The notes beneath the pieces were generated by a model. That model was not told where the DNA came from. It was given only the letters and a program-made list of their open reading frames with translations, and searched no databases. Made by a program: the position numbers and the translations under genes. 64,000 nucleotides of DNA from Gammaproteobacteria bacterium. Its GTDB lineage: Bacteria; Pseudomonadota; Gammaproteobacteria; Xanthomonadales; Wenzhouxiangellaceae. The stretch's first letter is position 1; each line of letters begins with the position of its first letter. The stretch spans positions 23,895 to 87,894 of the forward strand of contig JBJHCC010000010.1 of assembly GCA_050485825.1 (NCBI GenBank), written 5' to 3'. This document shows, in pieces, positions 7,455 to 61,856 of this stretch.

Positions 7455-7458
7455 AAGA

Positions 7459-7513
7459 CCGGAAGCCTGAAACCGAAAACCGTTAGTTCCTGAACCCTGA
7501 GCCCTGAAACCCA
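7459..7513 (+). repeat. Degenerate heptamer tandem array (CCnnAAn)
   Basis: ccggaag cctgaaa ccgaaaa ... ccctgag ccctgaaa between the marR stop and the gmd start. Confidence 0.75.
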
Positions 7514-7521
7514 ATATCCCC

Positions 7522-45454: not shown

Positions 45455-46693
45455 ATGCGTTGGCTTGGGTTGAAGGACGGACTACGTTCTTCTCCGCATC
45501 TTCTGTGGTGGTTTTTACTTACCCCCGGGCGCAGCGGTGTCCTGCGCCGGCATGTGCTGCGCCTCAAAGTCGGATCCGCCGGGACGATTTGGAAATGGTT
45601 ATGGGCTGAGCTTCGACGAGCAGCGGTTTGGCCCCTGGTGGTATGGCATGAGCAGCGAGTGTGTCGCAGCGAGCTTGCATTTCGATTGTCAAAACCTCCC
45701 GTGAACTGGCCTGAACTGGTGCTGGTTTGCCTCTTCGCGGGCATCCTGCCCAGGGAGTACCTGATGCTGGAGCTGTATCGAAAGCGCTCCTCTCGCAACT
45801 TGCATCGATTCGTGTTTCCGCAGGAGTTCAAAACGATCTCACTGGCTTATCGGGACGAAAAAGAGGCGGCTTTGCTGGCCGACAAGGCCGCCTTTCATGC
45901 GCTATTGAGCGAAGCGAGTATTCCGACGGTCCCCATTCTCGCCCGCTTTGTCGACGGTACTTGGACGAGAAGGGCGGCGTTGGAAAATTATGGAAGCCTG
46001 TTTGCAAAGCCGACCCGTGGCCACGGTGGTCAGGGCTCCATTCGTATCGAAAGACGATCATCTGACGGTTACCAAGTGGTTGGATGTGGGAGCGCCGAGC
46101 TTGCCCACCCGGCGCTGTATCTTGGCTCCCGTCGGGAAATTGACTATGCGGCACTGCTGAACTATCTGGAGCGTGCGACCGGGTCGGCCGATGTGATCAT
46201 CCAGCCGAACCTTTTCAATGTTGAGTCCCTTCAGTCCATTGCGCCTTCTGGGCTGAGCATTGTAAGAATCGTGACCGTCCGGGCGACCGAAGAGCCCTTG
46301 GTGATCTGTGCCAGTTTCTGTATGCCTTGCAACCGTCAAATCATCAGCCAGCGGGGCTGCTTTGCCCAGATCGACCTTGGCAGTGGCAGGCTGTCGAGTG
46401 CCGCTGACTTCAGCGTCTCGGGTGAGAGACGAACGCATCATCCCGATTCCGGGCAGCTGATCGAGGGTGTTGGAATTCCCCGCTGGAGCGAGGTTGTCGA
46501 TCTGGCGCTAAGGGCGCATGGGCTCTTCCCCAAGACGGCCTTTATCGGCTGGGATATTGCTCCGACACCGCAGGGTCCCCTCGTGCTGGAAGGCAATCTC
46601 AACTTTTGCGTGCAGATGCTCCAGAAATGGCCGGCCAGGCCGCTTCTGGATACCCGCATGTTTCCCTTGCTGAGACAGCTCGCGACCACCTGA
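45455..46693 (+). CDS. Sugar-transfer-associated ATP-grasp protein
   Basis: LADKAAF, FAKPTRGHGGQG, IIQP, IGWDIAPT..GPLVLEGN. Confidence 0.8.
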   Translation: MRWLGLKDGLRSSPHLLWWFLLTPGRSGVLRRHVLRLKVGSAGTIWKWLWAELRRAAVWPLVVWHEQRVCRSELAFRLSKPPVNWPELVLVCLFAGILPREYLMLELYRKRSSRNLHRFVFPQEFKTISLAYRDEKEAALLADKAAFHALLSEASIPTVPILARFVDGTWTRRAALENYGSLFAKPTRGHGGQGSIRIERRSSDGYQVVGCGSAELAHPALYLGSRREIDYAALLNYLERATGSADVIIQPNLFNVESLQSIAPSGLSIVRIVTVRATEEPLVICASFCMPCNRQIISQRGCFAQIDLGSGRLSSAADFSVSGERRTHHPDSGQLIEGVGIPRWSEVVDLALRAHGLFPKTAFIGWDIAPTPQGPLVLEGNLNFCVQMLQKWPARPLLDTRMFPLLRQLATT

Positions 46694-46737
46694 GGCTTGC
46701 AGGGCGTGCACATCGTTTCTGTACGGAAGCCCACATA

Positions 46738-48564
46738 GTGAAGATACTTGAACCAGTTATCACGGTTCGGCGCGTCCTGCCGATTTTGTGGGAAAGTGCG
46801 CGCACGCTGGCGATCCTGACTGGCGTGCTGCTGTTGCTCGAGATCTCTCTTGGCCTGGCAGTGCTGTTCCTGATCAAGCAGTTGGTAGATGTTCTGACTA
46901 CGAATCTTGCGGTGGGGGGGCTGGGCACCGGGCTTGAATCGGTGCTGCGCGCAGTTGTTCTCGCGGGTTCAGCGACCCTCGCCTTGCTGATCGTTCGGGC
47001 AGCTAGTGGCTTGGCCCGGGAAGCACAGGGAATGCGGGTGGCAGACCATGTGGACAGGATGATCCACAATCGGGCGATAGCCGCGGATCTGGCCTTCTAT
47101 GAAAGTCCGCTGTATTTCGATACGCTGCAGCGAGCGCGGCAGTCAGGCAATCAGCGACCCGCCCAGGTTGTGTCCAACCTGCTGATGATGAGCAAGAACC
47201 TGATCATGCTGGTCGGGGTGATTGTCCTGCTGTCCAGCATCAGCTGGACGCTGTTACCGGTGCTACTTATCGCCATAGTACCGGCCTTGCTGGTACGCCT
47301 GTATTTCACCCGGATTCTCTATGAATGGCGAAAGCGGCGAACCCAGCTCGAGCGCCGCGCAGGCTATTTTGACTGGCTGCTTACCTCAGATCTACATGCC
47401 AAGGAGCTGCGCCTGAACCAGCTGGGTGCTGTCTTTCGGGATCTCTATTCGGATATCCGCCAGACGATCCGAAGTGAGCAATTCGGAATCAATCGTCGCC
47501 GCGCGCTCGTTGAGGGTTTGGTGGGTAGCGTGGCGACCCTCGTCTTCTTCGCCGCGCTCGCTTATCTGGCGTTCCAGACGGCTGAAGGTCGAAACACTGT
47601 TGGTGACCTCGTGCTTTTTTTGCTGATTCTGCAACGCGCCCAGGCCATGGGCCAGGAGCTGGTGGGTCAGGTTTCGAGGCTTTTTGAAGACCACCTATAC
47701 ATCAGCCAGCTGTTCGATTTTCTGGAGGTCCGGCCGCGGATTACCAGTCCCAAAAGCCCCGCTGCTCTACCCGAGGAAAAGGGCATCGAGGTCCGCCTCG
47801 AGGCCGTAGACTTCACTTATCCCGGCTGTCGAGATCAGGTCTTGAAGCAGGTCGATCTGCGCATCGCGCCGGGGCAGATCGTGGCGCTGGTCGGCTCCAA
47901 TGGTTCGGGAAAGACATCGCTGATCAAGCTTCTGTGTCGGCTCTACGATCCGAGCGCTGGCCGAGTGCTGGTCGACGGTCGGGATGCCGCGGATTACGAT
48001 CTGGAGGAGTACCGTTCGCTGTTCAGTGTGGTGTTTCAGGATTTTGCCCGCTACGCGTCTACAGTGCGGGAAAACATTCGCTTCGGCGATCTTGATTGCC
48101 CCGTCGATAGCCCGGCCATTCTCGAAGCGGCGAAACTGTCTGGGGCAGCCGACTTCATCGAGCTTTTGCCGAAAAAATATGATACTTTTCTCAATCGTTC
48201 GTTCGACGGTGGCGTGGAGCTCAGCGTCGGACAGTGGCAGAAAATCGCGCTTGCCAGGTCATTCCTGCGACCTTCACGGATCGCCATTCTGGACGAACCG
48301 ACCAGCGCGATCGATCCGAACGCGGAATTCGAACTGTTTGAGAATTTTCGGGAGCGTCTAGGGGGGCGATCGGCGCTGATCATCAGTCACCGGCTGTCGA
48401 CGATTCGCCTGGCGGACTACATTTATGTCCTTGAATCTGGGCGAATTGTTGAGGCCGGTGATCACGACGACCTGATGAGCCGCCAAGGCGTCTACTTCCA
48501 GGCCTTCAGCCGCCAGGGCAAATACTATCGGGATAAGGAAGCGCCGGCTGGAGCCGTGAGCTGA
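46738..48564 (+). CDS. ABC transporter, fused TMD+NBD (RiPP exporter type)
   Basis: GSNGSGKTS, LSVGQWQKIALAR, ILDEPTSAID. The LSxGQWQ form is typical of peptide-exporter ABCs. Start set to GTG 46738. Confidence 0.88.
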   Translation: MKILEPVITVRRVLPILWESARTLAILTGVLLLLEISLGLAVLFLIKQLVDVLTTNLAVGGLGTGLESVLRAVVLAGSATLALLIVRAASGLAREAQGMRVADHVDRMIHNRAIAADLAFYESPLYFDTLQRARQSGNQRPAQVVSNLLMMSKNLIMLVGVIVLLSSISWTLLPVLLIAIVPALLVRLYFTRILYEWRKRRTQLERRAGYFDWLLTSDLHAKELRLNQLGAVFRDLYSDIRQTIRSEQFGINRRRALVEGLVGSVATLVFFAALAYLAFQTAEGRNTVGDLVLFLLILQRAQAMGQELVGQVSRLFEDHLYISQLFDFLEVRPRITSPKSPAALPEEKGIEVRLEAVDFTYPGCRDQVLKQVDLRIAPGQIVALVGSNGSGKTSLIKLLCRLYDPSAGRVLVDGRDAADYDLEEYRSLFSVVFQDFARYASTVRENIRFGDLDCPVDSPAILEAAKLSGAADFIELLPKKYDTFLNRSFDGGVELSVGQWQKIALARSFLRPSRIAILDEPTSAIDPNAEFELFENFRERLGGRSALIISHRLSTIRLADYIYVLESGRIVEAGDHDDLMSRQGVYFQAFSRQGKYYRDKEAPAGAVS

Positions 48565-48611: not shown

Positions 48612-49496
48612 TTGATGGATTATTGTATGAAGGTGTTTGTGGGTGGTTTGGTGTCCCTCTCTCTGGCATTCGGGCTGGTGGCTGAGAACTTTGCAGGCTC
48701 ACCCGAAGCTTTTGATTTTTCGGATCGAACAGAGCTGAAGACCGGTGGTCATGTGTTGCCTCCCGCTCCGGCCGTCAGGCGCGGTCAGCCGGTGGGTGGA
48801 TTCATCGTCTGGGATAACGGAGGGTTTATCACCCATCCAGGGGCGGGTGTCGATGGTGCGGATGTCAGCATGGCCTCTGAAGATCAAAATTCCGCCGGCG
48901 ACAATGTTCGAAAGCTGGAAAATAATGCCTATTTCCGAATCGCCGACCGGTTCGAGCTTTCGCAAAAGACCGGCCTGCTCACTCTGTCCACGTTCGGCTA
49001 CGAGCCCTTTGTGGCGCCACCAACGTGGACGTCCCGCAACCTCAGGATCTGGGCCGGGGTGCCTGGTGAACCAGGCAGCGAGGTTTTGTTTGAGCGGGAG
49101 TACAGCATTCTTGACGTTCAGTTCACTGGCGTCTATCGAGTGCTTCATCTCGAAAATCTTGATGATGTTCGGAGGCCGATCTATGAAATCTCCTGGGACT
49201 TGGCTGTGGCTGACAGCGCAGCTCCGCTGTGGCTAGAGGAAGGAGAGTACTGGATTGACTGGCAGGTCGTCGGCGGCGTAACCGGTTGGGCGATTTATGT
49301 CATGCAAGCCAATCCAGAGGATCCCGACTATCCGGTTACGCCTTTGGGAGATGCGCTGCAGTTGCGGCCGATCGGCTGGACTGCGAATGAGGTGTCGACA
49401 CCCTTTTTGCTGTTCGGCCTATCCGAGACGCTTTTCCAGGATCGATTCGAGGGGCTTGAACCGCCGGAGGCCAATGAGGAGTTTGTGGCCCCTTGA
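48612..49496 (+). CDS. Secreted beta-rich protein with C-terminal LFQDRFE motif
   Basis: Signal-like N-terminus (LVSLSLAFGLVA); near-terminal ETLFQDRFE. Confidence 0.55.
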   Translation: MMDYCMKVFVGGLVSLSLAFGLVAENFAGSPEAFDFSDRTELKTGGHVLPPAPAVRRGQPVGGFIVWDNGGFITHPGAGVDGADVSMASEDQNSAGDNVRKLENNAYFRIADRFELSQKTGLLTLSTFGYEPFVAPPTWTSRNLRIWAGVPGEPGSEVLFEREYSILDVQFTGVYRVLHLENLDDVRRPIYEISWDLAVADSAAPLWLEEGEYWIDWQVVGGVTGWAIYVMQANPEDPDYPVTPLGDALQLRPIGWTANEVSTPFLLFGLSETLFQDRFEGLEPPEANEEFVAP

Positions 49497-50410
49497 AGCA
49501 TTGGTTTAGTTGCTTCGGCCTCCTTGTGGCCAGCGACCTTGATCTGCGCGGTCAACCGGTTTCGCCAGGCCAGCCTGATTTGGCGCTCCGAGTCCAGCGA
49601 ATCCGGGATAAGCCCGCGCCAAGTCCGACTCAGCAGTGGGGGCGCGATCAGGCAAGGCAATCGAGTTGGGCGCTTTGCCCGGGGATTGCTCGTGTCGAGG
49701 CACATGACAGCGGTGATGTGCTGATCGAGGTGGATGAGGATCTTGATTCGGATAGTCTGCGCTTCGTAGCTGTCACAATTGCATTGCCCCTGGCGCTTCA
49801 GCAGCGCCCGGGATTGATGCTGGAGGCCAGTGCGGTTCGTTGGCACGGGCAGGTGCTGATCATCTGCGGTCGGGGGTACTGCGGCAAGTCGACTCTCGCC
49901 GCCTTGATGGCTGATTTGGGCGCTGAATTGCTGGCGGATTCGCACTGCTTGCTGACCCAAGGTGAATCGGGTGAACTGCTGCTGGGACCAGCTCTTCCAC
50001 ATGTCCGCCTTTGGCCTGCTCAATCGCAGCTGCTTGGGACTGAGTGGCCAGCGCCAGTCACACTCCGCCCCGGGCTTGGCAAGCGCCTGTTTGTCGTTCC
50101 GGAGCGCTTCGCCGCAGATCCCTCGCCCGTTAGCGGACTGATCGTTCTGCGCCGAGGTGTAGACGCCCAATTCAGGCACCATCGCCTCCCTGTTACCGAA
50201 TGCCTCCAGGCTCTGGCCGCGGCCGGCAGTCGTCTAGTCTGCTCTGTAACCCCGGCTCAGACTGCGCTTCGCTTCAGAATCATGACAAAGCTGGCGGCGC
50301 TTCCAATCTGTCACCTCCTGCAATGGCCGCGATGGGGTCAGAATGAACTCGAAACGCGTTCGAGGCTGCTGGAACTGCTGGCTGAGCAGGATTGGGGCGT
50401 TACGGCGTGA
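49493..50410 (+). CDS. HPr-kinase-related protein, degenerate active site
   Basis: LEASAV (usually LHASAV), GRGYCGKSTL Walker A, LLADS (usually DD). Confidence 0.75.
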   Translation: MKHWFSCFGLLVASDLDLRGQPVSPGQPDLALRVQRIRDKPAPSPTQQWGRDQARQSSWALCPGIARVEAHDSGDVLIEVDEDLDSDSLRFVAVTIALPLALQQRPGLMLEASAVRWHGQVLIICGRGYCGKSTLAALMADLGAELLADSHCLLTQGESGELLLGPALPHVRLWPAQSQLLGTEWPAPVTLRPGLGKRLFVVPERFAADPSPVSGLIVLRRGVDAQFRHHRLPVTECLQALAAAGSRLVCSVTPAQTALRFRIMTKLAALPICHLLQWPRWGQNELETRSRLLELLAEQDWGVTA

Positions 50411-51267
50411 TGGTCTTCGGCGCATTGATCTGGCTGGCCTCTTACCCGAAGTCGGGCAATACCTGGATGCGGGTCGTCCTCGGCGCGCTCCTGTTCGGTC
50501 GGGCGCGAGCTGGCGCGACCGACATCAACGAGTTGGAAATCATTGATCATGCCGGGAATCGGGGGCTGATTGAAGCCATTTCTGCCTGTCCGTCCTCGGA
50601 GTTGCACGCCGACGAGATCAATCATTTGCGTCCCGCTGGCTTCAGGCTCCTCGCCGAAAATCGGTCGGGGCTCAGCGTTGTCAAGGTTCATGATGCCTAT
50701 CGGACTCGGAGCGGCTTGGCGTCACCGTTCCCGACGGATGTGTCCGCCCAGGTCATCTACATTGTCCGGAATCCACTTGATGTCTCGGTCTCGTTGGCCG
50801 CTCATCTGGGCGTTAGCCTTGATGAGGCCATCGCAATCATGGATGACGACTTTATCCTCGGCCCCGAGGAGTCTGCCTTGGGTCCTCAGCTTCCTCAGCA
50901 TCTTGGAAGTTGGTCGGATCATGTCCGTAGCTGGACGGCCCAGGACGATTTCCCGATACAGGTCGTTCGCTACGAAGATATGATTCGCGATATCAAGGCG
51001 GAGCTGGTGCGCATCGTGAAGATGCTAGGGCTGCCGGCCACTTCGGATGATGTTTTGGCCGCAGCTGCGGCCGGTGACTTCGATCGACTTCAGCTGGCCG
51101 AGAGTCAGGCCGGTTTTCGTGAAAAACCCGCCAGCCTCAAGGGACGTTTCTTTCGCTCAGGTCGGGCAGGGGGCTGGAGAGAGATCTTGTCCAGTGGGCA
51201 AGTCGACCGCTTGACGGAGCGCCATTCTGACATGATGGATCAATTTGGCTATCTTGGTGCTTCTTGA
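50407..51267 (+). CDS. PAPS-dependent sulfotransferase
   Basis: IWLASYPKSGNTW, VKVH, YIVRNPLDVSVS, GSWSDH, RYED, FFRSG..GGW. Confidence 0.92.
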   Translation: MMVFGALIWLASYPKSGNTWMRVVLGALLFGRARAGATDINELEIIDHAGNRGLIEAISACPSSELHADEINHLRPAGFRLLAENRSGLSVVKVHDAYRTRSGLASPFPTDVSAQVIYIVRNPLDVSVSLAAHLGVSLDEAIAIMDDDFILGPEESALGPQLPQHLGSWSDHVRSWTAQDDFPIQVVRYEDMIRDIKAELVRIVKMLGLPATSDDVLAAAAAGDFDRLQLAESQAGFREKPASLKGRFFRSGRAGGWREILSSGQVDRLTERHSDMMDQFGYLGAS

Positions 51268-51314
51268 TTGGCAGAGCAGTCAGACATCCTGACTTTTGAT
51301 TGGGGAATATCGTA

Positions 51315-51596
51315 ATGAGGACGAAAAGAGTGTTGCGGACCGGAAATGTTCTATCCCACTCGATCGACGGGGAAACCGTCATCCTGAATCTAGATAACGA
51401 GAAATATTTCACCCTGGACACGGTCGGCACAAGATTCTGGGAGGTCATACTTGAGCATGGCGATGGCAAGGAGGCTGTCGATATCCTGCTAGAGGAGTAT
51501 GACGTCGACCGGACAACGCTGGTCGCGGACATGCAACGCTGGGTCGAGGAAGTCATCGAGCTTGGACTGCTAGTACCGACCGCTGAGGACGGCTGA
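51315..51596 (+). CDS. Lasso B1 / PqqD-like RiPP recognition element
   Basis: DGETVILNLDNEKYFTLDTVGTRFWE...EEYDVD...LGLL. Confidence 0.92.
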   Translation: MRTKRVLRTGNVLSHSIDGETVILNLDNEKYFTLDTVGTRFWEVILEHGDGKEAVDILLEEYDVDRTTLVADMQRWVEEVIELGLLVPTAEDG

Positions 51597-51693: not shown

Positions 51694-52131
51694 GTGAGAC
51701 GCCTGCGCTGGGCGCTGTATCTGAGCTTGGCATGGGTCGGCCTGCGACTGATTCGCTCGATGCTGAGGATTTTGGGCTATCGAAGGACCGTTCGGCTGCT
51801 GGCATGGCTCTCGCCAACTCCGAAACGATCGGGTTACACGAGGAGCATGCGGGTTGCTGCAAGTGCGATCGAGCGCGTGGATGGCTGGTGGCCAAGGCAG
51901 CCCCGCGGATGTCTGCGACGCTCCCTACTGTTCTGGTGGCTGTTTCGATGGTTGGGATACAGCAGCGAGATTCGAACGGGGGTGCGACGGGATGGCGCTG
52001 AAATCGAGCTCCACGCCTGGGTTGAGAGTCGCGGCTTGATCCTGAATGACCGGGCTGGAAAGGTCAGCCAGTACACAGTCCTTTGGGAGGATATTTCTTC
52101 GGCAGTCGTGGAGTCTGGGGGTAGACGGTGA
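51694..52131 (+). CDS. Lasso B2 leader peptidase (transglutaminase-like)
   Basis: GCLRRSL (catalytic Cys), GVRR, LHAWVE (catalytic His). Confidence 0.92.
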   Translation: MRRLRWALYLSLAWVGLRLIRSMLRILGYRRTVRLLAWLSPTPKRSGYTRSMRVAASAIERVDGWWPRQPRGCLRRSLLFWWLFRWLGYSSEIRTGVRRDGAEIELHAWVESRGLILNDRAGKVSQYTVLWEDISSAVVESGGRR

Positions 52132-53981
52132 GCGCCTTTGTGGCGGTTGTTCATTTTGATGACGCACCTGTTGACTCCAAGCTTGTTCAGGGGCTGGCAA
52201 ATATAGTAGCGTACCGAGGACCCGACGCCAGCGCGGTCTATTGCTCTGGTGCATTGGGTTTGGCGCATCACCTGATGCGCGTGACGCGATCCTGTGCGGA
52301 GGATGCACAACCGCTGGTATCCACTGCTGGTCAGTTTGCGCTTGTCTGCGATGCGCGGTTTGATCAGCGGCGCCTTTTGATCAATGCGCTGCGGGGTCAC
52401 GGGGTTGTTGTTTCGGAAAGATCTCCCAACTCGAGACTGCTGCTTGAAGCCTTGCAGCTTTGGGGGGAAGCGGCTCTTGACAGGATCAAGGGTGACTATT
52501 CCTTTGTGTTTTTTGATCAAGCTCGGCGGCGTGTCATTGCCGCCGTCGATCCTTTTGGACTGCGCACACTTTTCTACGGAACTTTTGAGAATGGACTGGT
52601 GATCAGTAATGATCCATTGCCAGTCCTGGCTCATCCAGCGCTTGATGTTGCTTTGGATCGAACAGCTTTGGCAGACTTTCTGATGACCGGTCGAGTGGGG
52701 GGAATTGACCCTGCGGCTACGCCCTTTCGATTGGTCCGGCAGCTGGTAGGGGGGCATCGAATCAGGCTCGACGTGGACTCAGGCAAGACCGACATTCGTC
52801 GGCACTGGCAGTTTCCGATACAAAGCAAGGCGCTCTATTACAGTTCCCTTGAGGACTACGGCGAGCACTTCCGCTGTGTTTTGAAGGAGGCTGTCAGCGA
52901 CCGCATTGACGCGCCGTCGGTAGTGGCCCCGATGAGCGGTGGGATGGACTCGACCACCGTGGTCGTCACGGCAGCCGAGCTCATAGCCGGTGGTTCTGGG
53001 CCGGATCTCTTCACCGCGGTAACGGCGGTGCAGCATGATCAAGACCCTGAGGGCCTGCTGGCCGCTGAGGTTTGTAGAGCGGCAGGTGTTCCCCATCATA
53101 AAATTGTCGCCAGCCCTGGTAGACCCTTGGCTGCTTGGCGGTGCATGCCGTTTCCGGCGACTGATTTTTTTGACCTATACGAGAACAACCAAAGAGTTTC
53201 GTCCCAGTTTGGTCGCCTGAGCATTAATGCCAGCAGCGCAGATTATGCGCTGTGCCCAGAGCCTTTCAGCATCTTGGGTCAGCTGCGCGCCTCAGGTCTG
53301 AGGGATACCTGGCGTGCTCTAAGGATCATGAAGTCCCAGTACCGGTTTCGTCCTCGGTTTGGGTCCGGGCTTTATTCCTGGTTAAGGCGAACACCGATCG
53401 TCAACCCATACACTCGGCCGCCGTATCCTTACCCGGACTGGTTGTCATCGGATCTTGAGCGGGATTTGGAGCTTCGGGAGCGCTGGGCTGCGCACTGGTC
53501 ACGCTGGCCTTCACCCCAGCACCCATTGCGGCCCACTGCCCATCGAATGATTACTGCAAAGGGGCGCCTCAGCATGCATTCGGTCGGTTGGCCCCTGGAT
53601 TTTGCCTTGCCGGCTCCAGCTGACCCGTTTCTGGACCAGCGCATGATCGAGTTTCTTTGGTCGCTCCCCCCTCTTCCCTGGTTCTATGACAAGCACTTGA
53701 CCCGGACTGCGATGCGAGGCTGGCTACCTGATTCGGTCGTTGATCGTCCGAAGACTCCAGCCCGTCGGTGGCTGCCATCCGCAACCCGTGACGGCGTAGA
53801 TTTTTCCTGGGACCCCGGTGGCTTGATCCTTGAGCTAGTCGACCGATCTCGGCTCAGGGAGCTTAACGACGACGGTGCCTCGGCGGCAGACTTCCACCCC
53901 ATGTTTCTGAATCGGTGGCTGACCTCCTTTGAGGCAGTTTTTGAGCAAATGACGGGGAAAAAGTGCCAACTCACTGTTTAA
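52128..53981 (+). CDS. Lasso cyclase C (asparagine synthase-like)
   Basis: MSGGMDST PP-loop, PFLDQRMIEF, K..RTAM..WLP..V..RPK; no N-terminal catalytic Cys; coupled to B2. Confidence 0.9.
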   Translation: MSAFVAVVHFDDAPVDSKLVQGLANIVAYRGPDASAVYCSGALGLAHHLMRVTRSCAEDAQPLVSTAGQFALVCDARFDQRRLLINALRGHGVVVSERSPNSRLLLEALQLWGEAALDRIKGDYSFVFFDQARRRVIAAVDPFGLRTLFYGTFENGLVISNDPLPVLAHPALDVALDRTALADFLMTGRVGGIDPAATPFRLVRQLVGGHRIRLDVDSGKTDIRRHWQFPIQSKALYYSSLEDYGEHFRCVLKEAVSDRIDAPSVVAPMSGGMDSTTVVVTAAELIAGGSGPDLFTAVTAVQHDQDPEGLLAAEVCRAAGVPHHKIVASPGRPLAAWRCMPFPATDFFDLYENNQRVSSQFGRLSINASSADYALCPEPFSILGQLRASGLRDTWRALRIMKSQYRFRPRFGSGLYSWLRRTPIVNPYTRPPYPYPDWLSSDLERDLELRERWAAHWSRWPSPQHPLRPTAHRMITAKGRLSMHSVGWPLDFALPAPADPFLDQRMIEFLWSLPPLPWFYDKHLTRTAMRGWLPDSVVDRPKTPARRWLPSATRDGVDFSWDPGGLILELVDRSRLRELNDDGASAADFHPMFLNRWLTSFEAVFEQMTGKKCQLTV

Positions 53982-54043: not shown

Positions 54044-54072
54044 TTGACATCGGTCACGGATCTGAATAATCT
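54044..54072 (+). promoter_or_regulatory. sigma70 promoter of the precursor gene
   Basis: TTGACA-17 bp-TAATCT; SD AAGGGA at 54095-54100. Confidence 0.65.
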
Positions 54073-54108
54073 ACCTACGCTTGGCCGACTTTCAAAGGGA
54101 CCGATATC

Positions 54109-54270
54109 ATGAAAAAAGAGTACTCTACTCCGAAAATTGCCGCGCTGGGTCAGCACGCTGACTTGGTGGCGGCTGGTGGTGCGTCGTCTGATGTCGACGG
54201 CGTATTTTACCGAGATGGTGAGAAGTTTGCCTCGTTTGGCACCGATCCGAAGACGCCGCCGGTCAGCTGA
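54109..54270 (+). CDS. Lasso precursor peptide, 53 aa (below ORF-track cutoff)
   Basis: MKKEYSTPKIAALGQHADLVA-AGGASSDVDGVFYRDGEKFASFGTDPKTPPVS; leader YxxPxI-x3-G motif, Asp at core positions 7 and 9, C-terminal Ser. Confidence 0.88.
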   Translation: MKKEYSTPKIAALGQHADLVAAGGASSDVDGVFYRDGEKFASFGTDPKTPPVS

Positions 54271-54289: not shown

Positions 54290-54317
54290 AAAGCCGTCGT
54301 ATCGACGGCTTTTTTTT
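54290..54317 (+). terminator. Intrinsic terminator, possibly bidirectional
   Basis: AAAGCCGTCG-TAT-CGACGGCTTT followed by a T run, between convergent genes. Confidence 0.88.
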
Positions 54318-54364: not shown

Positions 54365-55324
54365 TCAAGCGATAGGGGATAGGCGCTTTCGGAATGATGA
54401 TTGATCAAATTGGCAAATCACCGACCCGTGCTTATCGCTCACTTCGCCTTTCCATTGCCATAGATAGGTCTGGTTAGTCCAGTGCGCATGAATTTGCGCC
54501 TCAATTTGGAAGCCTGGTCGAACCTCAATTGCGTGGGGCAGTGGCATAAATGCCTGTCCGTAGATCAGTTCCGGTTCAGCCGGATGGTTTGAAAACCCGA
54601 CCCCTGGAGCAAGCTCCGCATCAAACCATGTGGCAAGCCCATGAAGCAGGCCCGAACGCTTGATCTCCCAAGACATCAGGCCATGGGCGCTGGGTTCTGT
54701 GACGTTGTGGTAGTCGATAGTTAGCCAGTGCTGCGCTTCGCTTAGCATTTGCTCCGGCCGCAGTCTAACCTTGCTCCATCGATTGATCTCGAAATCGGCG
54801 CCCGCGGCTAAGTCCAGTCCGAACGGGTTGATTCGCCAGGGCTCTGTAACTCTGCGATACTCCTCAGGGTGCTCGACTGGAGCCGAGTATAGGTTGTCGC
54901 GGCGGCCAATCAGAATGCCGTCGGGTGCAAGCAGCCGTTCTCTGGCGTCGATGATGCTGGGAATATGTTGCGAGTAGAGTGGAAGAACGCTACGCAAATC
55001 AGAGATGATGACGTTGGCCGAGGTGTCAAGTTCAAGATTACTGGAGACGCCTTCGATGCAGCTCACTCGATCCTGCATGTCGTTTTGCTGAACAAGTCTT
55101 TTCGCCAGTCTGATCGACGGGTTGCATTCAACCGCTATGACCTGTCGGGCCCCCATACGTGCTGCCAGCATGGCAAAAACGCCCGGGCCGGCACCAATTT
55201 CCAGCACTAGATCGCCTGGCTTTATCAGCTTCTGCATGGCAGCCAGGTAGGCCTCCACGCGGGGCTGGTTCAGCACCATGTGACCGAAATGAGTCAGCGT
55301 GTAGCCCGGATCGTGCATATCCAT
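54365..55324 (-). CDS. PRMT-like SAM methyltransferase
   Basis: HMVLNQPRVEAY, VLEIGAGPG, AVECN, then a beta-barrel half (HGLATWFDAEL). Start ATG 55324 after a TAAGG SD. Confidence 0.78.
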   Translation of the reverse strand: MDMHDPGYTLTHFGHMVLNQPRVEAYLAAMQKLIKPGDLVLEIGAGPGVFAMLAARMGARQVIAVECNPSIRLAKRLVQQNDMQDRVSCIEGVSSNLELDTSANVIISDLRSVLPLYSQHIPSIIDARERLLAPDGILIGRRDNLYSAPVEHPEEYRRVTEPWRINPFGLDLAAGADFEINRWSKVRLRPEQMLSEAQHWLTIDYHNVTEPSAHGLMSWEIKRSGLLHGLATWFDAELAPGVGFSNHPAEPELIYGQAFMPLPHAIEVRPGFQIEAQIHAHWTNQTYLWQWKGEVSDKHGSVICQFDQSSFRKRLSPIA

Positions 55325-55326
55325 CC

Positions 55327-56355
55327 TTAAACGTTGGGCTGGAGCGAAAGCGCCTGGCAGAGTTCGCGCGCGCTGGAATCCAGCGTAGATAGCTCCCATG
55401 GCCTGCGGTATTCATAGACCTCTATTTGGCGGGCGATCCGGCCACCAAAGTCGTGAAGTCGAGTTTGGTCGAAATACAACTGGCACAAGGCAGGTCGGTA
55501 GATCGAGTGCATGAATGCCCGGTAGGCGCCTATGCCCCGAATGCGTCGGATTGTTGCCGGCTGATCAGGCTCGCCTCGTGTCAGGATGACGAGCTTCGTC
55601 AATGGCGCAGGTTGATTATGAGAGCCAGACTTCTGCCGTATGTGGAACTTGTCTTCACGGGCCAGATCGCGGCTGAGTCCAGATTTGCTCAGCCCTAGGG
55701 CGTCGAGCGCGCTGGTCCATAGCTTAAGTCGGGGCGGTCCAGGATGCAGCAAGGGATCCGGATCCTCAGGCCTCAGTACGGCAAGATCGTCGCTGACCAG
55801 TGAAAATCCCAGCCGATAATGAAGATAGGCTATAAGCGTTGATTTCCCGGCGCCGGATGGGCCCGTGAACGCCACAGCGCCGTCACCGGTCCTGATGGCA
55901 CTGACGTGTATCGGCAACTGTTGCCGTTGGTGAAGAAGCGCCCCGAGCACCGTGCCGAGCAAATAGGTTCTGACGTCACCTTCCGCCGCTCGTGTCTCCG
56001 CAGTGGTCTGGTCGCGCCGATCCACCGTAATTGTTCTGCCGTCTTCTACAAGGTACCGGGCCACATTGGGGCTTCCAACAATGCATTGTCGAGCGTTAAA
56101 CAGAAGCCACGGCGCGCCCGCGCGACCATTTGGCAGCGTGGTAGGCACCTCGCCAAGGATAATCTCTACGACGTCCTCTTCTTCCGGCTCCGGATGTGAC
56201 GGGCTCAGTTCAGGGATTTCGAGCTGCGATCGTATCGTAAGTCCGCATGTCCGATACACGTGCCACACGGGCTGTCGACTGCGCTTGCCGCGCCTCTCAA
56301 TGGGGCGCGACTCGCGTCCTTCGCTATTGGTCCCGGACGCGGCTATGCTGTTCAT
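55327..56355 (-). CDS. HPr-kinase-related (PadeK-like) kinase, intact motifs
   Basis: IHVSAI, FTGPSGAGKSTL, LVSDD, PRLKLW. Confidence 0.87.
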   Translation of the reverse strand: MNSIAASGTNSEGRESRPIERRGKRSRQPVWHVYRTCGLTIRSQLEIPELSPSHPEPEEEDVVEIILGEVPTTLPNGRAGAPWLLFNARQCIVGSPNVARYLVEDGRTITVDRRDQTTAETRAAEGDVRTYLLGTVLGALLHQRQQLPIHVSAIRTGDGAVAFTGPSGAGKSTLIAYLHYRLGFSLVSDDLAVLRPEDPDPLLHPGPPRLKLWTSALDALGLSKSGLSRDLAREDKFHIRQKSGSHNQPAPLTKLVILTRGEPDQPATIRRIRGIGAYRAFMHSIYRPALCQLYFDQTRLHDFGGRIARQIEVYEYRRPWELSTLDSSARELCQALSLQPNV

Positions 56356-56545: not shown

Positions 56546-57811
56546 GTGGCTAGGCGAATTCTTTCCGTAATGTCCGGCTTACAATCCTCGACCACCCTCG
56601 GCGTCTCTGCCGATTCGATATTGCAGCGTGCATTCGAGTTGACGCTGTCCATACAGGGCGAGAAAGTGGTCCTCCTGGCCGGCGGCCGGTTTGCCAGCGT
56701 GAGCGCGCATACGCTGGCCATTCTTGATGCATTCGCGACTCCCAAAACCCTGGCGGCCGGCCTCCAGCAGCTTTCTTGCCGATCAAGAGGCTTGCGGGAC
56801 TGGATTCGGCTTAACAACCAGGTTTTAGCGCTAGTTCAGGCCGGGATCCTCGTTGAACCGGATAGCCGCGATGTGCTTTTCCCGTCTCATTCCGGCAGTT
56901 TTTCGAGCCCGGATATTCACATCCGGATGCTCAATGATCAGGTCCGCACCTTGGCATATCAGCAGGCGCTTCGGGAAGTTGTGCGGCCCGGTGACGTGGT
57001 AGTGGATGTCGGGACTGGCACCGGGGTGCTTGCGGCATCCGCTGCGCTTGCGGGGGCTCGGCAGGTCTACGCAGTGGAGCGGACCGGGAATATGCCCAAG
57101 CTCGCTCGGGAGTTTTTCCGGGCGAACGGTCTGGATGGCAGAATTACGTTGATAGAAGGTGACTCTACCGGTGTTCAGTTGCCGGAGCCGGCCGATGTGA
57201 TGGTCAGCGAGATTATCGGAAACGACCCGCTGGCCGAGGGGATAGTTTCAACTACTGCAGATGCGCGCCGAAGGTTGCTGGCAAGCAAGGCCCGGATCAT
57301 CCCCTCTGTGTTGCGGCTTTATGCGCTGCCGTTGACTGCCCCGGACGCGCTCTACCAACAGGCGGTCTTTACGGTCGACCAGGCCGAGAATTGGCGGAAC
57401 CGCTATGGGCTTGATTTTTCAGGATTCGTCGCTGATTGCTCCGCCAGGACCTTCACGACGACAGTCAACACTGCGCGGGTCAAGGCGTGGCCGCGGCTGG
57501 CAGCGCCCATTCTCTTGGAGTCGATTGATTTGGCCGAAGCAACGGTTGAGGCGATCGAAGTGACGCGCGAGTTTGCCGTCGAAGCTTCAGGTCAAATCAA
57601 CTGTATTGTCTTGTACTTCGAGGCTCAGCTCTCGCCTGCGGTTTGTTTGTCCGTTCATCCGGATCACGCCGATGCGGCGAACAGCTGGGCCAGTTGGGCT
57701 TGGTTGCCCGGCCAACCCTTGGCGGTCCGAGCCGGGCAGCGCATGCGGTTGAACTATCGCTTCGACGTGCGCAATAAGTCCTCCATGCTCCTCAGCGAGT
57801 TCCTGCCCTGA
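56546..57811 (+). CDS. PRMT-like methyltransferase with N-terminal RRE/wHTH-like domain
   Basis: HIRMLNDQVRTLAY, VVDVGTGTG, double-E loop VSEIIGNDPLAEG; N-terminal three-strand/three-helix pattern ending LVQAGILVE. Confidence 0.8.
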   Translation: MARRILSVMSGLQSSTTLGVSADSILQRAFELTLSIQGEKVVLLAGGRFASVSAHTLAILDAFATPKTLAAGLQQLSCRSRGLRDWIRLNNQVLALVQAGILVEPDSRDVLFPSHSGSFSSPDIHIRMLNDQVRTLAYQQALREVVRPGDVVVDVGTGTGVLAASAALAGARQVYAVERTGNMPKLAREFFRANGLDGRITLIEGDSTGVQLPEPADVMVSEIIGNDPLAEGIVSTTADARRRLLASKARIIPSVLRLYALPLTAPDALYQQAVFTVDQAENWRNRYGLDFSGFVADCSARTFTTTVNTARVKAWPRLAAPILLESIDLAEATVEAIEVTREFAVEASGQINCIVLYFEAQLSPAVCLSVHPDHADAANSWASWAWLPGQPLAVRAGQRMRLNYRFDVRNKSSMLLSEFLP

Positions 57812-58533: not shown

Positions 58534-59784
58534 ATGTTGAATTTTGAGTGTGGTTTGGTCCTGCGTAGGCGTCGCCGCTCTTCCTTGGCGCTGGTGGTTT
58601 TTCTCATTTTTTCAGTTGGTTGGACGAGTAACGCTGCGGCCAATCCGGCCTTCGATCAGTTCCTGGCCAGCGCCGGTGAGTGGCTGGAGGCTCGACAGCT
58701 GCCAAGCGGCGCTTTCCCCTACTCGGAAGCGGATCCGACAGTTTTTCCCAGTGTCCAGTCGGTTTCTGGCCTGGCGATGCTGGCTGCCTATGAGGCCACT
58801 TGCCGCCTTGGCAACTGCAATACCGACTTTCTGGACTCGGCGGTTTTGGCCGGCGATTACATGATCGGGGGCGGCTTTGGTAATTTTTCACCTAACACAG
58901 GCCTTCCACGTATTCGGACGTTTGACCCGCTGCTTTTGGTGCGCCTGTCAGAGGCAACTGGGGATCCCCAGTACGCCGACTTTATCCAGGTGAACTTCTG
59001 GCAGCGTCTGGAAGACGGCATCTACGGGCCGCAGAACAATTGGGATATCGACGACTATGTAGCCTCCGAACTCGCTCGTCGCGCGGGTGCCCCGAGCACC
59101 GGGCCGATCGTGGCCGCCTGGGACTTGGCTCTGATAGCAGCTGCCGCCCGGGAAGCAGGTATCAACCAGTTCAATGCCTCGCTGGCCGTCGGCGCCAGCA
59201 CGGCCCTGGAGTCTGCTACCGACGCCGGGACCTCGATCGGCGCGAGCGGCTTTGATGTTCTGGGCTTGACCGGTGCAGTGTGGATGGGCGCATTGACTGG
59301 CCTCTCGACCGTGCCGGGCTCTGGTCCCTGGTCGGGCGTTGCCGGGAATTCGGGGCTTGCCAGCCTGCTGATGCAGTACCAAGGCCCGCAGGGTGGGTTC
59401 CTGCAGAGTTCGGCGGCCGGCTCTTCTCCTGTTCAGGATGTGGATACAGTTAGCCAGAATACTGCTTTTGCAATTGTGGGGCTCCATCAGTTGAATCGCG
59501 TCGCCTATGGCCACTCGATTCTGCGGGGTCAGGAGGCGCTGGTTGAGGTCTTCCAGGAGCCCAGTGGGCGAGTCAACTACTATCATCCGGACGTTGATCT
59601 GAGCTCGGTGGCTGATCCCAAGCCTTACTTGCATGTCCACGCCTATGCGTTGTTCGCCTTGGCCGACACCCGCGACCTGCCGGATCCGGCCCCGGTTCCG
59701 GTCAATGATTGGCGCCTGCTTTCGCTGCTGGCGCTGCTGATGCTGGTGCTCGGCTGGACGGGCTTGGTGGTTCGCCGGCAGTAG
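58534..59784 (+). CDS. Exported alpha/alpha-barrel-like protein with IPTL-CTERM-like C-terminal anchor
   Basis: Signal peptide; Q..SGAF / Q.PQGGF QW-like repeats; tail PVPVNDWRLLSLLALLMLVLGWTGLVVRRQ. Confidence 0.6.
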   Translation: MLNFECGLVLRRRRRSSLALVVFLIFSVGWTSNAAANPAFDQFLASAGEWLEARQLPSGAFPYSEADPTVFPSVQSVSGLAMLAAYEATCRLGNCNTDFLDSAVLAGDYMIGGGFGNFSPNTGLPRIRTFDPLLLVRLSEATGDPQYADFIQVNFWQRLEDGIYGPQNNWDIDDYVASELARRAGAPSTGPIVAAWDLALIAAAAREAGINQFNASLAVGASTALESATDAGTSIGASGFDVLGLTGAVWMGALTGLSTVPGSGPWSGVAGNSGLASLLMQYQGPQGGFLQSSAAGSSPVQDVDTVSQNTAFAIVGLHQLNRVAYGHSILRGQEALVEVFQEPSGRVNYYHPDVDLSSVADPKPYLHVHAYALFALADTRDLPDPAPVPVNDWRLLSLLALLMLVLGWTGLVVRRQ

Positions 59785-59846: not shown

Positions 59847-59955
59847 CTTGTCTGGCCCCAGCCTGAGCCGCGGCCGCCTGGCGTTAGCTGGGGAAGACCC
59901 CGGCAGTTTTTTCGCTATCCTTCTTGCCCAATACTTTCGCCGCAGGGTGTGGGTC

Positions 59956-60615
59956 ATGCAGCGTTTTTTTGACATCGTGTTCTCGGCGCTGGCGCTGTTG
60001 GTTCTGGCGCCCCTGCTGGTTCCTATTGTTGTTCTGCTGCGCCTGACCGGGGAGGGCGAGGTTTTTTTCGGTCAGCTGCGGATAGGGCAGGGCGGTCGGC
60101 CGTTTCGCCTGCTGAAGTTCGCGACCATGCTCAAGGACAGCCCCAATCTCGGGACGGGCACCCTGACCGTCAAGAACGACCCGCGGGTGCTGCCGATGGG
60201 GCGATTCCTGCGCAAGACCAAGCTCAATGAACTGCCGCAGCTGATCAATATCCTCGCCGGCGACATGAGCGTGATTGGGCCCCGGCCGCAGACTCAGCGC
60301 TGCTTTGACGCGTTTCCGGCACGTTCTCAGATGGAGATCATCAAGGTCCGGCCGGGCTTGTCCGGGATCGGGTCGATCGTGTTTCGCGACGAAGAGGAGC
60401 TGATGGCCCATGCCCGCGACCCCGACGCCTACTATGACCAGGTGGTCATGCCCTACAAAGGGCGGCTGGAAGAGTGGTTCGTCGCCCGTCGCTCTCTTTA
60501 TGTGTATTTCGCCCTGATTGCCTTGACGGTCTGGGTGATTCTGTTTCCCAACAGCGAAGCGGTGTTCCGGGTTTTCCCGGACTTGCCCCCGCGCCCCCCC
60601 GAGATGGACGGGTGA
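59956..60615 (+). CDS. Priming phosphoglycosyltransferase (Bac_transf, PglC/WcaJ-like)
   Basis: RFFD, FRLLKFATM, FLRKTKLNELPQL.N...GDMSVIGPRP, RPGLSG. Confidence 0.92.
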   Translation: MQRFFDIVFSALALLVLAPLLVPIVVLLRLTGEGEVFFGQLRIGQGGRPFRLLKFATMLKDSPNLGTGTLTVKNDPRVLPMGRFLRKTKLNELPQLINILAGDMSVIGPRPQTQRCFDAFPARSQMEIIKVRPGLSGIGSIVFRDEEELMAHARDPDAYYDQVVMPYKGRLEEWFVARRSLYVYFALIALTVWVILFPNSEAVFRVFPDLPPRPPEMDG

Positions 60616-60668
60616 GGCAAATCCCTCGCCGGTGGCGCGATCCTCGTTCGACGGAAACCGTCGGTCGA

Positions 60669-60995
60669 GTATGTCGGCCCTACGCGGCTGACGGACCATG
60701 TGTGCCGCAACCCGATATCGTCCGTCGGGGACGTGGCCCCGACCTACTCGGTGCCAGTCGATGCCGCAGAGAATTCATTGGGCGCGGTTTACGTAGGTCG
60801 GCCCCACGTGGCCGACGGACCGTGTATGCCGAAGCCCGATATCGTCCGTCGGGGACGTGGCCCCGACCAACTCGGTGCCGGTCGATACCTCGGAGCATTC
60901 ATTGGGCGCGGTTTGCGTAGGTCGGCCCCACGCGGCCGACGGACCAGGATTGCCGAAGCCCCACATCTTCCGTCGGGGACGTGGCCCCGACCGAC
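60669..60995. repeat. REP array 3: three pairs, 124-bp period
   Basis: Units at 60669 (degenerate), 60793 and 60917. Confidence 0.9.
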
Positions 60996-61085
60996 TCGGT
61001 GTCGGTCGATGAATCGGAGATCTGGTTGGGCCGGGTTTGGGTGGGATCCCGGCCTGCCACGTCGCCCGTATTCGGGTGATCTGAT

Positions 61086-61856
61086 TTGAACGCCGCCCTT
61101 CGCGCCCTGCGCCGTCTGGTCTATCCGCTGGGTTTCAGCAGCCTGTTAATTGGCTCGGGTGCTTTGCTGTGGCTGCTTCGATGGCGGCGTGTCGGGCCGA
61201 TGCTGGTGTTTGCTGGTCTAACCGCCCTGTGGTTGTTTTCGACGCCTATGTTCGCCAACCAGCTCGGTCTGGCGCTCGAAAGCCGCTACCCGGAGCGTCC
61301 CATACACACGCTGCCCACGGCCGAGGTCATCGTCGTGCTGGGCGGTGCGTTCAGTCATCGGGCGGGGCGGGCTCATCCTGATATGAGCGGATCGGCCGAT
61401 CGTTATTGGCATGCGGCGCGGCTGTACCACGCCGGTCGCGCCGAGCGCATCATTCTGTCCGGCGGCCGTTACCCCTGGCGTGGGCCGGGCTTGACTGGGG
61501 CGGCCGCCGGCGTCGTCTTTCTGCGTGACCTTGGCGTATCCGAGCAGGCGCTGTGGCTGGACGATCAGGCACTATCGACGCGCGAGAACGCGGTCAATGT
61601 TGCTGCCATGCTCGCAGACGAGGGTTTGGACACCATCTTGCTGGTGACCTCCGCATCGCACATGCCGCGCTCGATGGGCGCCTTCCGCGCGCTCGGGCTG
61701 GAGCCGATTCCGGTGCCCACGGATTTTCGCCACGAGCGCCTGTGCCCGCGCGCGTCCGTGAACTGGCTGCCCAGCGCGGATGCGCTGGCGTTGAGCACGC
61801 GCGCAGTCCATGAATATGTCGGGTGGTGGCTGTATGCCCGCCGCGGTTGGATCTGA
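61086..61856 (+). CDS. YdcF/DUF218 (ElyC/SanA-like) envelope protein
   Basis: IVVLGG, IILSGG, STRENA, LVTSASHMPRS, P.PTDF, EYVG. Confidence 0.9.
   Translation: MNAALRALRRLVYPLGFSSLLIGSGALLWLLRWRRVGPMLVFAGLTALWLFSTPMFANQLGLALESRYPERPIHTLPTAEVIVVLGGAFSHRAGRAHPDMSGSADRYWHAARLYHAGRAERIILSGGRYPWRGPGLTGAAAGVVFLRDLGVSEQALWLDDQALSTRENAVNVAAMLADEGLDTILLVTSASHMPRSMGAFRALGLEPIPVPTDFRHERLCPRASVNWLPSADALALSTRAVHEYVGWWLYARRGWI

Follow-up and report, generated by a model that had tools for sequence, protein, structure and literature searches.

What does the open reading frame (ORF) at positions 54109–54270 encode, and what would the genes around it do to the product? The ORF lies in a 64,000-nucleotide stretch of contig JBJHCC010000010.1, from a gammaproteobacterium of the Wenzhouxiangellaceae, which we refer to as the window. 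A preliminary description of this DNA, made from the sequence alone, took the ORF for the precursor of a lasso peptide with an Ala1-Asp9 ring, a long tail, a C-terminal Ser and Val in place of the conserved leader Thr. Our analysis confirms the ORF as a genuine lasso precursor and makes it quite probable that it encodes the precursor (A) of a class II (Cys-free) lasso peptide, belonging to a kinase-type, heavily tailored gene cluster, with SyanA as the nearest characterised precursor. Taken alone, the precursor is an unremarkable addition to the kinase-type group, if one not characterised before; precedents have been published for its Ala1-Asp9 ring, its C-terminal Ser and its Val(–2). What is probably a new lasso variant is the pairing of a single-Arg precursor with MT2, a fusion of a RiPP recognition element (RRE; RiPP, a peptide made on the ribosome and then modified post-translationally) and a protein arginine methyltransferase (PRMT). 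The precursor locus comprises the following features.

54109–54270, plus strand: lasso precursor ORF, ATG start, 53 residues, translating to MKKEYSTPKIAALGQHADLVAAGGASSDVDGVFYRDGEKFASFGTDPKTPPVS
54095–54100, plus strand: Shine-Dalgarno-like AAGGGA, 8 nt 5′ of the ATG, as read from the sequence
54109–54171, plus strand: predicted leader peptide, residues 1–21, MKKEYSTPKIAALGQHADLVA, with Tyr(–17), Pro(–14), Ile(–12), Gly(–8) and Val(–2)
54172–54267, plus strand: predicted core peptide, 32 residues, AGGASSDVDGVFYRDGEKFASFGTDPKTPPVS, register from alignments
54196–54198, plus strand: codon for Asp30 (core Asp9), predicted isopeptide acceptor, the sole ring-region acidic residue present in 27/27 members
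54211–54213, plus strand: codon for Arg35 (core Arg14), candidate PRMT target, the only Arg of the whole precursor
54265–54267, plus strand: codon for Ser53 (core Ser32), predicted phosphorylation site, Ser-ended in 27/27 members
54293–54317, plus strand: intrinsic terminator, GCCGTCG-TAT-CGACGGC followed by T8, a perfect 7-bp GC-rich stem 3′ of the stop codon

The translation is identical to that in the preliminary description, and the motif positions given there hold: Tyr5, Pro8, Ile10, Gly14 and Val20 in the leader, one Arg in the core and Ser at the end. An identical peptide is already present as a called gene in the protein collection, on a 96,863-bp contig. The predicted monoisotopic mass of the lasso core is 3242.5156 Da. 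Adjacent to the ORF lie genes for the three proteins of lasso peptide maturation.

51300–51596, plus strand: B1, PqqD-type RRE chaperone (PF05402 at 1.4e-13; NF033536 lasso_PqqD at 4.8e-14)
51694–52131, plus strand: B2 leader peptidase (NF033537 at 68.2 bits, cutoff 33; PF13471)
52128–53981, plus strand: C, lasso cyclase, Asn-synthase-like (NF033535 at 2.7e-50; PF00733, GATase_7)

The peptide belongs to a family of 27 distinct sequences, the 26 besides the window's being 47–58 residues long. Seven positions are identical in 27/27 members, namely Tyr5, Pro8, Leu13, Gly14, Gly24, Asp30 and the Ser at the C-terminus, and leader position 10, Ile in the window, is Ile, Val or Leu across the family. 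Comparison of the window with three diverged loci gave pN values (nonsynonymous divergence) of 0.14–0.32 and pS values (synonymous divergence) of 0.72–0.91, the latter saturated; the pN/pS ratios of 0.20–0.38 indicate purifying selection, and no alignment of the intergenic DNA on either side was possible between the same loci. The upstream B1-B2-C arrangement is also seen in 9 homologous loci. The preliminary description had proposed a search for homologues beside such genes, and that is where the relatives sit: in homologous loci with enough flanking sequence, L030 excepted, B1-B2-C are followed by the peptide gene and then, on the opposite strand, by genes for a PRMT-fold methyltransferase and a kinase. 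For L030, the most divergent member, no B1, B2, C, methyltransferase or kinase was seen on the stretch examined.

Might the ORF nevertheless be a chance open frame, or one that is not expressed? Its small size speaks for this, as does the lack of any Pfam or curated family match above cutoff. NCBIfam NF033528 (lasso_cyano) scored 19.6 bits (E 6.5e-4) over residues 1–33, under the 33-bit cutoff; this match is a resemblance at the leader level only, and we count it against the lasso assignment. A chance frame is effectively refuted, however, by the 27 homologues, the purifying selection, the fixed place after the cyclase, the ribosome-binding site and the terminator, and we give it a negligible probability. 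The identification as a lasso precursor thus holds.

The gap between the cyclase and precursor genes measures 127 bp. Each locus compared has a ribosome-binding site and terminator of its own, and in L003 a terminator that is not homologous to the window's stands at the equivalent place. At 54044–54072 a TTGACA hexamer, ∼65 nt 5′ of the precursor ATG, is followed at a spacing of 15–17 nt by AATAAT/TAATCT-like hexamers, and L003 has TTGACT-18-TAGTAT at the same relative position. A consensus promoter scan did not flag the window's TTGACA site. Judging from these sequence elements, transcription of the precursor may start from a separate promoter downstream of the cyclase gene.

The peptide family is rare and patchy. 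With the family hidden Markov model (HMM) the peptide turned up in 2 of the 93 genomes searched from the window's own family and in 0 of 400 others sampled from elsewhere in its phylum. A scan of genome contigs returned one locus, L009 (PWVB01000421.1), on a metagenome-assembled genome labelled Anaerolineae, and a scan of metagenomes returned four loci. The L009 peptide is 83% identical to the window's (tblastn best segment). Its placement suggests horizontal spread or a binning error.

Where is the leader removed? We strongly favour cleavage at Ala21|Ala22, giving an Ala1-Asp9 ring, because Val20 aligns with the canonical Thr(–2). When the family HMM was run against 31 known precursors (a subset of the list in the supplement of PMC10368454), SyanA scored highest, and its gap-free alignment pairs Val20 with Thr(–2), Ala22 with Gly1, Asp30 with Asp9 and Phe33 with Phe12. 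The HMM alignments of SakeA, achromosin and sviceucin have the same register. With MAFFT, too, Val20 shares a column with the Thr(–2) of SyanA, SakeA, FusA and L028; the last is a metagenomic precursor that reads 'KTA|AGGSLAPD...VFHTRES...GPGPS' and lies ∼4.6 kb from a 51%-identical MT2 homologue on the same contig. The YxxPxL spacing of the window's leader (–17 to –12) is identical to that of SyanA, FusA and SakeA, and 'ADLVA|A' (Asp18-Leu19-Val20-Ala21|Ala22) parallels SakeA 'ADLTA|G'. The alignments to Thr(–2) precursors, together with L028, therefore bear out the earlier assignment of Ala22 as core residue 1 with Val at –2. A paeninodin-type spacing, with Tyr at –15, Asp18 at –2 and Val20 at +1, was also considered and was rejected on the variability of position 18 and the ungapped fit to –17-type leaders.

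The usual Thr at the penultimate leader position is absent throughout the family, in which position 20 is Val in 26/27 members and Ile in 1/27. The preliminary description had regarded Val(–2) as unusual, but precedents deprive it of novelty. Cleavage after an Ile(–2) leader was validated in vitro with BsfB2 and its substrate BsfA, whose YxxPxL also spans –17 to –12 (Duan et al. 2023, PMC10368454). The same study describes Ile/Val(–2) as 'rare but not uncommon' in kinase-type clusters, with Val(–2) known bioinformatically, and reports Ile/Val(–2) leaders from Acidobacteriaceae and Sphingomonadales.

Some observations weigh against cleavage before Ala22. Thr is found at position 22 in 9/27 members, and none of the characterised lasso peptides known to us starts with Thr. 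Gly24 never varies, and three members (P0013, P0015 and P0150) have a one-residue insertion in the ring region, so that under the favoured register Asp30 becomes residue 10 and these members would need Asp8 or another register. A point against our explanation as a whole is that B2 has no close relative among the 15 B2 proteins from the PMC10368454 set that we searched by BLASTP: the best matches were Acidobacterium capsulatum (26% over 124 residues), SakeB2 (36% over 85) and TbiB2 (40% over 47), SyanB2 showed 32% over 81 residues and PadeB2 scored E 0.023; identity to characterised B2s is at best 32–40% over 47–85 residues.

Part of this evidence would fit a cut by B2 at Gly23|Gly24, which would put Ala/Thr22 at –2 and Gly23 at –1 and leave a 30-residue core with a seven-membered Gly1-Asp7 ring. 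Gly24 would then be residue 1, and Gly is the commonest lasso residue at that place; Thr22, where present, would supply the canonical Thr(–2)-x-Gly1; and the insertions would yield an allowed eight-membered ring with the universal Asp as acceptor. On the other hand, YxxPxL would move to –19 to –14, a spacing found in 0 of the 31 scored references, all of which use –17 or –15. The variable residue 21 would fall at –3, leaving the strongly conserved [LIV]19-Val20 pair without a role, and it is Asp18-Leu19-Val20-Ala21|Ala22 that matches the canonical acidic-Leu-Thr-x|core pattern. All the ungapped alignments (SyanA, SakeA, achromosin, sviceucin, FusA and L028) set Val20 on Thr(–2). We regard cleavage at Gly23|Gly24 as unlikely and retain Ala21|Ala22.

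Under the retained register the core has the makings of a lasso ring: a small first residue, Ala1, and both Asp7 and Asp9. The preliminary description had left the acceptor open between the two Asp residues. Asp30 is invariant and Asp28 is dispensable, being Asp in only 19/27 members, and Asp30 (core Asp9) is therefore the predicted acceptor; the Asp9 half of the earlier claim stands and the Asp7 half falls away. A ring closed on Asp28 (Ala1-Asp7) after cleavage before Ala22, with Asp9 free, would agree with the presence of Asp28 in the window's peptide and in most of the family, and seven-membered lasso rings exist. Yet the 8 members that have Asn, Pro, Gly or Ser at position 28 are served by the same cyclase family, and the sole usable acceptor of SyanA is at the position equivalent to Asp30. 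We consider an Asp7 ring very improbable, and the Ala1-Asp9 ring is assumed below.

Beyond the ring, the core contains a conserved block, [KR]18-[FY]19-x-[ST]21-Phe22 (core numbering), whose aromatic pair [FY]19-x-x-Phe22 is kept in 27/27 and 26/27 members, respectively. The shortest members end 1–3 residues past Phe22. Phe12 and Tyr13, previously suggested as plugs, are unlikely in that role, as they would leave a loop of just 2–3 residues; Phe19/Phe22 would fit better as the steric lock, leaving a loop of nine residues. Cores in the family range from 24 to 32 residues, the extra length being a variable Pro-rich tail after the conserved block. At 32 residues the window's core is the longest of its family, as far as the earlier remark on its length holds true, but longer ones occur in the literature set (TbiA alpha/beta).

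What, then, might happen to the single Arg, which had been suggested as a methylation target? The candidate enzyme is MT2.

56546–57811, plus strand: MT2, RRE-PRMT fusion, with a predicted N-terminal winged-helix RRE (about residues 17–95 of the 413-residue gene call) plus a PRMT core

Sequence comparison and structural models together indicate an RRE-PRMT fusion in MT2. By sequence, PRMT7, PRMT6 and PRMT1 all match, with E values of ∼1e-26 to 1e-21 (PRMT7, 5.7e-26), and the MT2 loop SEIIGNDPLAE aligns with the double-E loop of TbPRMT7, SEIFGTMMLGE. The HxxMLxDxxR residues, both double-E Glu and a Trp aligned to the THW loop are invariant among 56 homologues. The AlphaFold (AF2) model (pLDDT 92.6) has four strands and three helices at residues 17–90, followed by the PRMT core, and as a whole matches PRMT structures (Foldseek E ∼1e-25). 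When the N-terminal domain alone was submitted (pLDDT 82), the matches were near-exclusively to RREs, with probabilities of 0.97–1.0 and TM-scores of 0.5–0.64; they included TbiB1 and another leader-bound lasso B1, PqqD, ThcOx, MccB, PbtF-RRE and MibB. An hhalign comparison of the MT2 N-terminus with four B1 sequences was weak (probability 7–9%), and the RRE assignment is based on the predicted fold. The fusion implies action on the leader-bearing precursor. A Pfam scan of the N-termini of MT2 and of the two kinase-like proteins K1 and K2 (see below) gave no match at E up to 10.

The distribution of MT2 points to the Arg as well. An Arg35 peptide and an MT2-type gene occur together in five loci (the window, L003, L026, G087 and L031), four of them independent, as G087 and L031 are near-duplicates and were counted as one. 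MT2 is absent beside K2 in four clusters whose core lacks Arg (L007, L010/L012, L014 and L029). The co-occurrence gave a Fisher P value of 0.014, relatedness being ignored, and a narrower tally of 4 versus 3 gave 0.029. The L026 precursor (7455–7616) and P0002, each of 53 residues, differ solely at position 35 (Arg versus Glu); the Arg version belongs to an MT2-containing cluster, and P0002, the Glu version, comes from a contig too short to judge. Against a link between MT2 and Arg35 stand the small number and relatedness of the loci, and L016, which has an Arg35 peptide and no MT2 in the 1.5 kb between K2 and the contig end.

MT2 has >380 relatives in our search. Homologues with 40–57% identity are found in lasso-type clusters in L021 (Cyclobacteriaceae bacterium YHN15), L022, L027 and L028. 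Near these distant homologues, several candidate precursors combine a Ser end with an Arg motif (FARD in L022, SRVD in L027, HTRE in L028), and the L027 candidate has an apparent Val at –2.

A second methyltransferase gene lies between the precursor and K2.

54365–55324, minus strand: MT1, PRMT-fold methyltransferase without RRE (PRMT1 at E 2.4e-24), start 2 nt past the K2 stop
55327–56355, minus strand: K2, HprK-like kinase with intact motif (TIGR04352 at 1.6e-8)

MT1 is translationally coupled to K2. In its alignment with PRMT1 the double-E pair is replaced (E to D and E to S), and MT1 accompanies Arg-free peptides; it therefore probably methylates something other than Arg. It occurs throughout the family, except that in G087 and L031 it is swapped for an MT2-type paralogue: L020 (G087:C52; 5190–9932) and L031 (10195–14831) each encode, in MT1's place, another MT2-type enzyme, one that has an RRE and whose double-E loop is intact. 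The peptides of L031 and of G087, which is of the same genus as the window, have Arg for Lys at position 39 (RFATFG). A second covariation of enzyme and residue, between the MT1 swap and position 39, is possible, and there are hints, amounting to speculation, that core residue 18 is the MT1 site.

It could be that MT2 and MT1 both methylate another group (Lys18, the phospho-Ser or a carboxylate) and that the co-occurrence of Arg35 and MT2 reflects shared ancestry. The family-wide presence of MT1, without the double-E pair and beside Arg-free peptides, and the discordant L016 speak for this explanation. MT2 is a different paralogue, however, and retains HxxMLxDxxR, both double-E Glu and the THW-aligned Trp in 56/56 homologues. 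MT2-associated distant precursors carry [FY]-x-R-[DE]-like motifs (FARD within ...NFARD... in L022, YLRD in G087 and, more loosely, HTRE in L028), and the L026 and P0002 peptides are identical but for Arg/Glu35. We accordingly treat a non-Arg target as a substantial but lesser possibility, and put methylation of core Arg14 by MT2 at an even chance or slightly better. That Arg14 is the sole Arg, that MT2 is an RRE-PRMT fusion and that it co-occurs with Arg35 in five loci, L016 being discordant, supports the earlier suggestion.

The C-terminal Ser is found in 27/27 members, though their tails vary by up to 8 residues. In other kinase-type clusters the C-terminal Ser is phosphorylated on the linear precursor by PadeK, ThcoK, SyanK or PsmK (PMC8498205, PMC9266682). 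The window's K2 motif reads IHVS...GPSGAGKS...SDD, so that His...GxxGxGKS...DD is intact, and, L030 apart, K2 adjoins the peptide wherever the cluster sequence is long enough. By analogy, the invariant Ser and an intact HprK-type kinase in the cluster support the view that Ser32 is a phosphorylation site. A second, degenerate protein of this type is encoded upstream.

49493–50410, plus strand: K1, degenerate HprK-like protein in which Glu replaces His and DS replaces DD, with Walker A (GRGYCGKS) retained

K1 is present in L010/L012, L026, L029 and G087 and missing in L003. To judge by its altered motif, it may be a pseudokinase partner. The complete product that we envisage would carry N-methyl- or dimethyl-Arg14, introduced by MT2 on the leader-bearing precursor, together with a phospho-Ser serving as a handle for methyl, sulfate, nucleotidyl or glycosyl marks; we hold this combination to be somewhat short of an even bet.

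Candidate genes for such further marks, and one for export, lie upstream.

50392–51267, plus strand: sulfotransferase, PAPS-type (PF00685 at 3.8e-21)
46606–48564, plus strand: ABC exporter (D) (PF00005, PF00664)
44210–45439, plus strand: NTP_transf_5 nucleotidyltransferase (PF14907 at 1.5e-28)
45455–46693, plus strand: sugar-transfer ATP-grasp (PF14397 at 7.1e-31)

The plus-strand part of the cluster also holds an unknown 294-residue protein. K2 and MT1, on the minus strand, converge on the precursor, and MT2 is back on the plus strand. No correlation was seen between the sulfotransferase and a core Tyr: L010 has a sulfotransferase without a core Tyr, and L003 has neither. A gene for a Bac_transf sugar transferase comes after the lasso block in almost every homologous locus (59848–61856 and 58534–59784 in the window; also L003, L007, L026, L029, L031 and L020), so the link to glycan genes is conserved and no accident of this genome. 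It is usually accompanied by DUF218 and a ∼410-residue unknown protein, and in three loci by a Peptidase_S74 protein.

Outside the window, at ∼93.3–96.4 kb (L025 6859–9929, minus strand), the contig carries a second lasso cluster. It encodes a cyclase, a PqqD-type B1, a B2 and a candidate precursor, '...YVPPAFERHPLQLITL|GGSPGLADSGDTGESSPFGTPKGSVNFDDDYSDDDEGNWGRGF', which has the canonical Thr at –2, Gly1 and Asp8 for the ring, and an acidic tail of great length. A 1461-residue Peptidase_C25/GEVED protein adjoins this second cluster.

How does the system compare with those already characterised? Paeninodin, offered as the model in the preliminary description, proved less close than SyanA of Sphingobium yanoikuyae ATCC 51230, which took the top family-HMM score and whose C-terminal Ser is polyphosphorylated by SyanK. 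SyanA and the window share leader spacing, the distance from Leu-Gly to the acceptor Asp (a nine-residue ring), an HprK-type kinase, a post-ring Asp-x-Thr-Phe motif and a [ST]-Phe-(x)-Ser C-terminus. They differ in that SyanA has Thr(–2) and Gly1; the similarity, 16.6 bits, lies mostly in the leader, and the B2 proteins show the limited identity noted above. No PRMT-type methyltransferase is mentioned for syan in the literature examined. The paeninodin (PadeA), ThcoA, BaceA and PsmA group shares with the window the Ala1-Asp9 ring, a 'MKKxYSxP' leader start and a C-terminal Ser, which in this group an HprK homologue phosphorylates on the linear precursor; some of its clusters have sulfotransferase or nucleotidyltransferase genes, as the window does. 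In this group, however, YxxPxL stands at –15 to –10, residue –2 is Thr and the gene order is different; PadeA scored 10.9 bits with the HMM, and PadeB2 is among the weak B2 matches (E 0.023).

BsfA, from Bradymonas sediminis (PMC10368454), has in common with the window's precursor a beta-branched hydrophobic residue at –2, YxxPxL at –17 to –12 and a kinase-containing cluster. It differs in its Gly1-Asp8 ring, its Asp end and the phosphorylation of ring Ser3 by BsfK, and BsfB2 is a weak match to the window's B2; the window's core has no Ser3, its conserved site being the C-terminal Ser. Pseudomycoidin (PsmK and PsmN) resembles the window in combining an HprK-like kinase with a nucleotidyltransferase-type gene, the window having two PF14907 genes, and by analogy this pairing may mean that the phospho-Ser is further elaborated. 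Precursor family, gene order and host phylum are different, and no methyltransferases are described for pseudomycoidin.

As for the methyltransferase, the core of MT2 is like PRMT1, PRMT6 and PRMT7 in sequence and fold, with the double-E loop intact, and in the literature we found neither an RRE fusion nor activity on a RiPP described for any characterised PRMT. Lasso peptide reviews of 2021, 2022 and 2026 list C-terminal carboxyl methylation, Asp O-methylation (aspartimide), phosphorylation, glycosylation, citrullination, acetylation, hydroxylation, epimerisation, prenylation and cross-links; Arg N-methylation and confirmed sulfation are absent from them. A literature search combining lasso peptides with arginine methyltransferases returned nothing relevant. 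The sole Arg-directed lasso modification that we found described is that of the citrulassins, recognised partly, as here, through co-occurrence of enzyme and residue. There, however, the Arg is deiminated rather than methylated, by a peptidyl-arginine deiminase encoded elsewhere in the genome, outside the cluster.

Collectively, these comparisons suggest the following pathway. B1 and the RRE domain of MT2 would bind the 21-residue leader through Tyr(–17), Pro(–14) and Ile(–12), as motif and fold lead one to expect. On the linear precursor, K2 would phosphorylate the C-terminal Ser53, in the manner of PadeK, ThcoK and SyanK, and MT2 would N-methylate Arg35, as its fold, its motifs and the co-occurrence suggest. 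B2 would then cut at Ala21|Ala22, reading the beta-branched Val(–2) for Thr; the alignment places Val there, and the chemistry would follow that of BsfB2. C would link the Ala1 amine to the side chain of Asp9 (Asp30) around the tail, with the [FY]19-x-x-Phe22 pair as the likely steric lock. MT1, the sulfotransferase, the nucleotidyltransferase and the ATP-grasp protein would add further marks, and the ABC transporter would export the product.

The PRMT-type genes of lasso clusters thereby gain a concrete, testable substrate, one Arg with MT2 encoded 2.3 kb away, and nature offers Arg/Glu variants of the peptide that track the presence or absence of MT2. The family is also natural material on how the B2 protease reads Val versus Thr at –2. 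If the proposal is true, phospho-Ser marks would tie the peptide to the neighbouring sugar-transferase genes, and the peptide would be the first Arg-methylated lasso peptide. MT2 would then be the first PRMT from bacteria whose peptide substrate is known, a substrate that is defined, small and reached by leader guidance, and would provide a leader-guided arginine methylase for peptide engineering.

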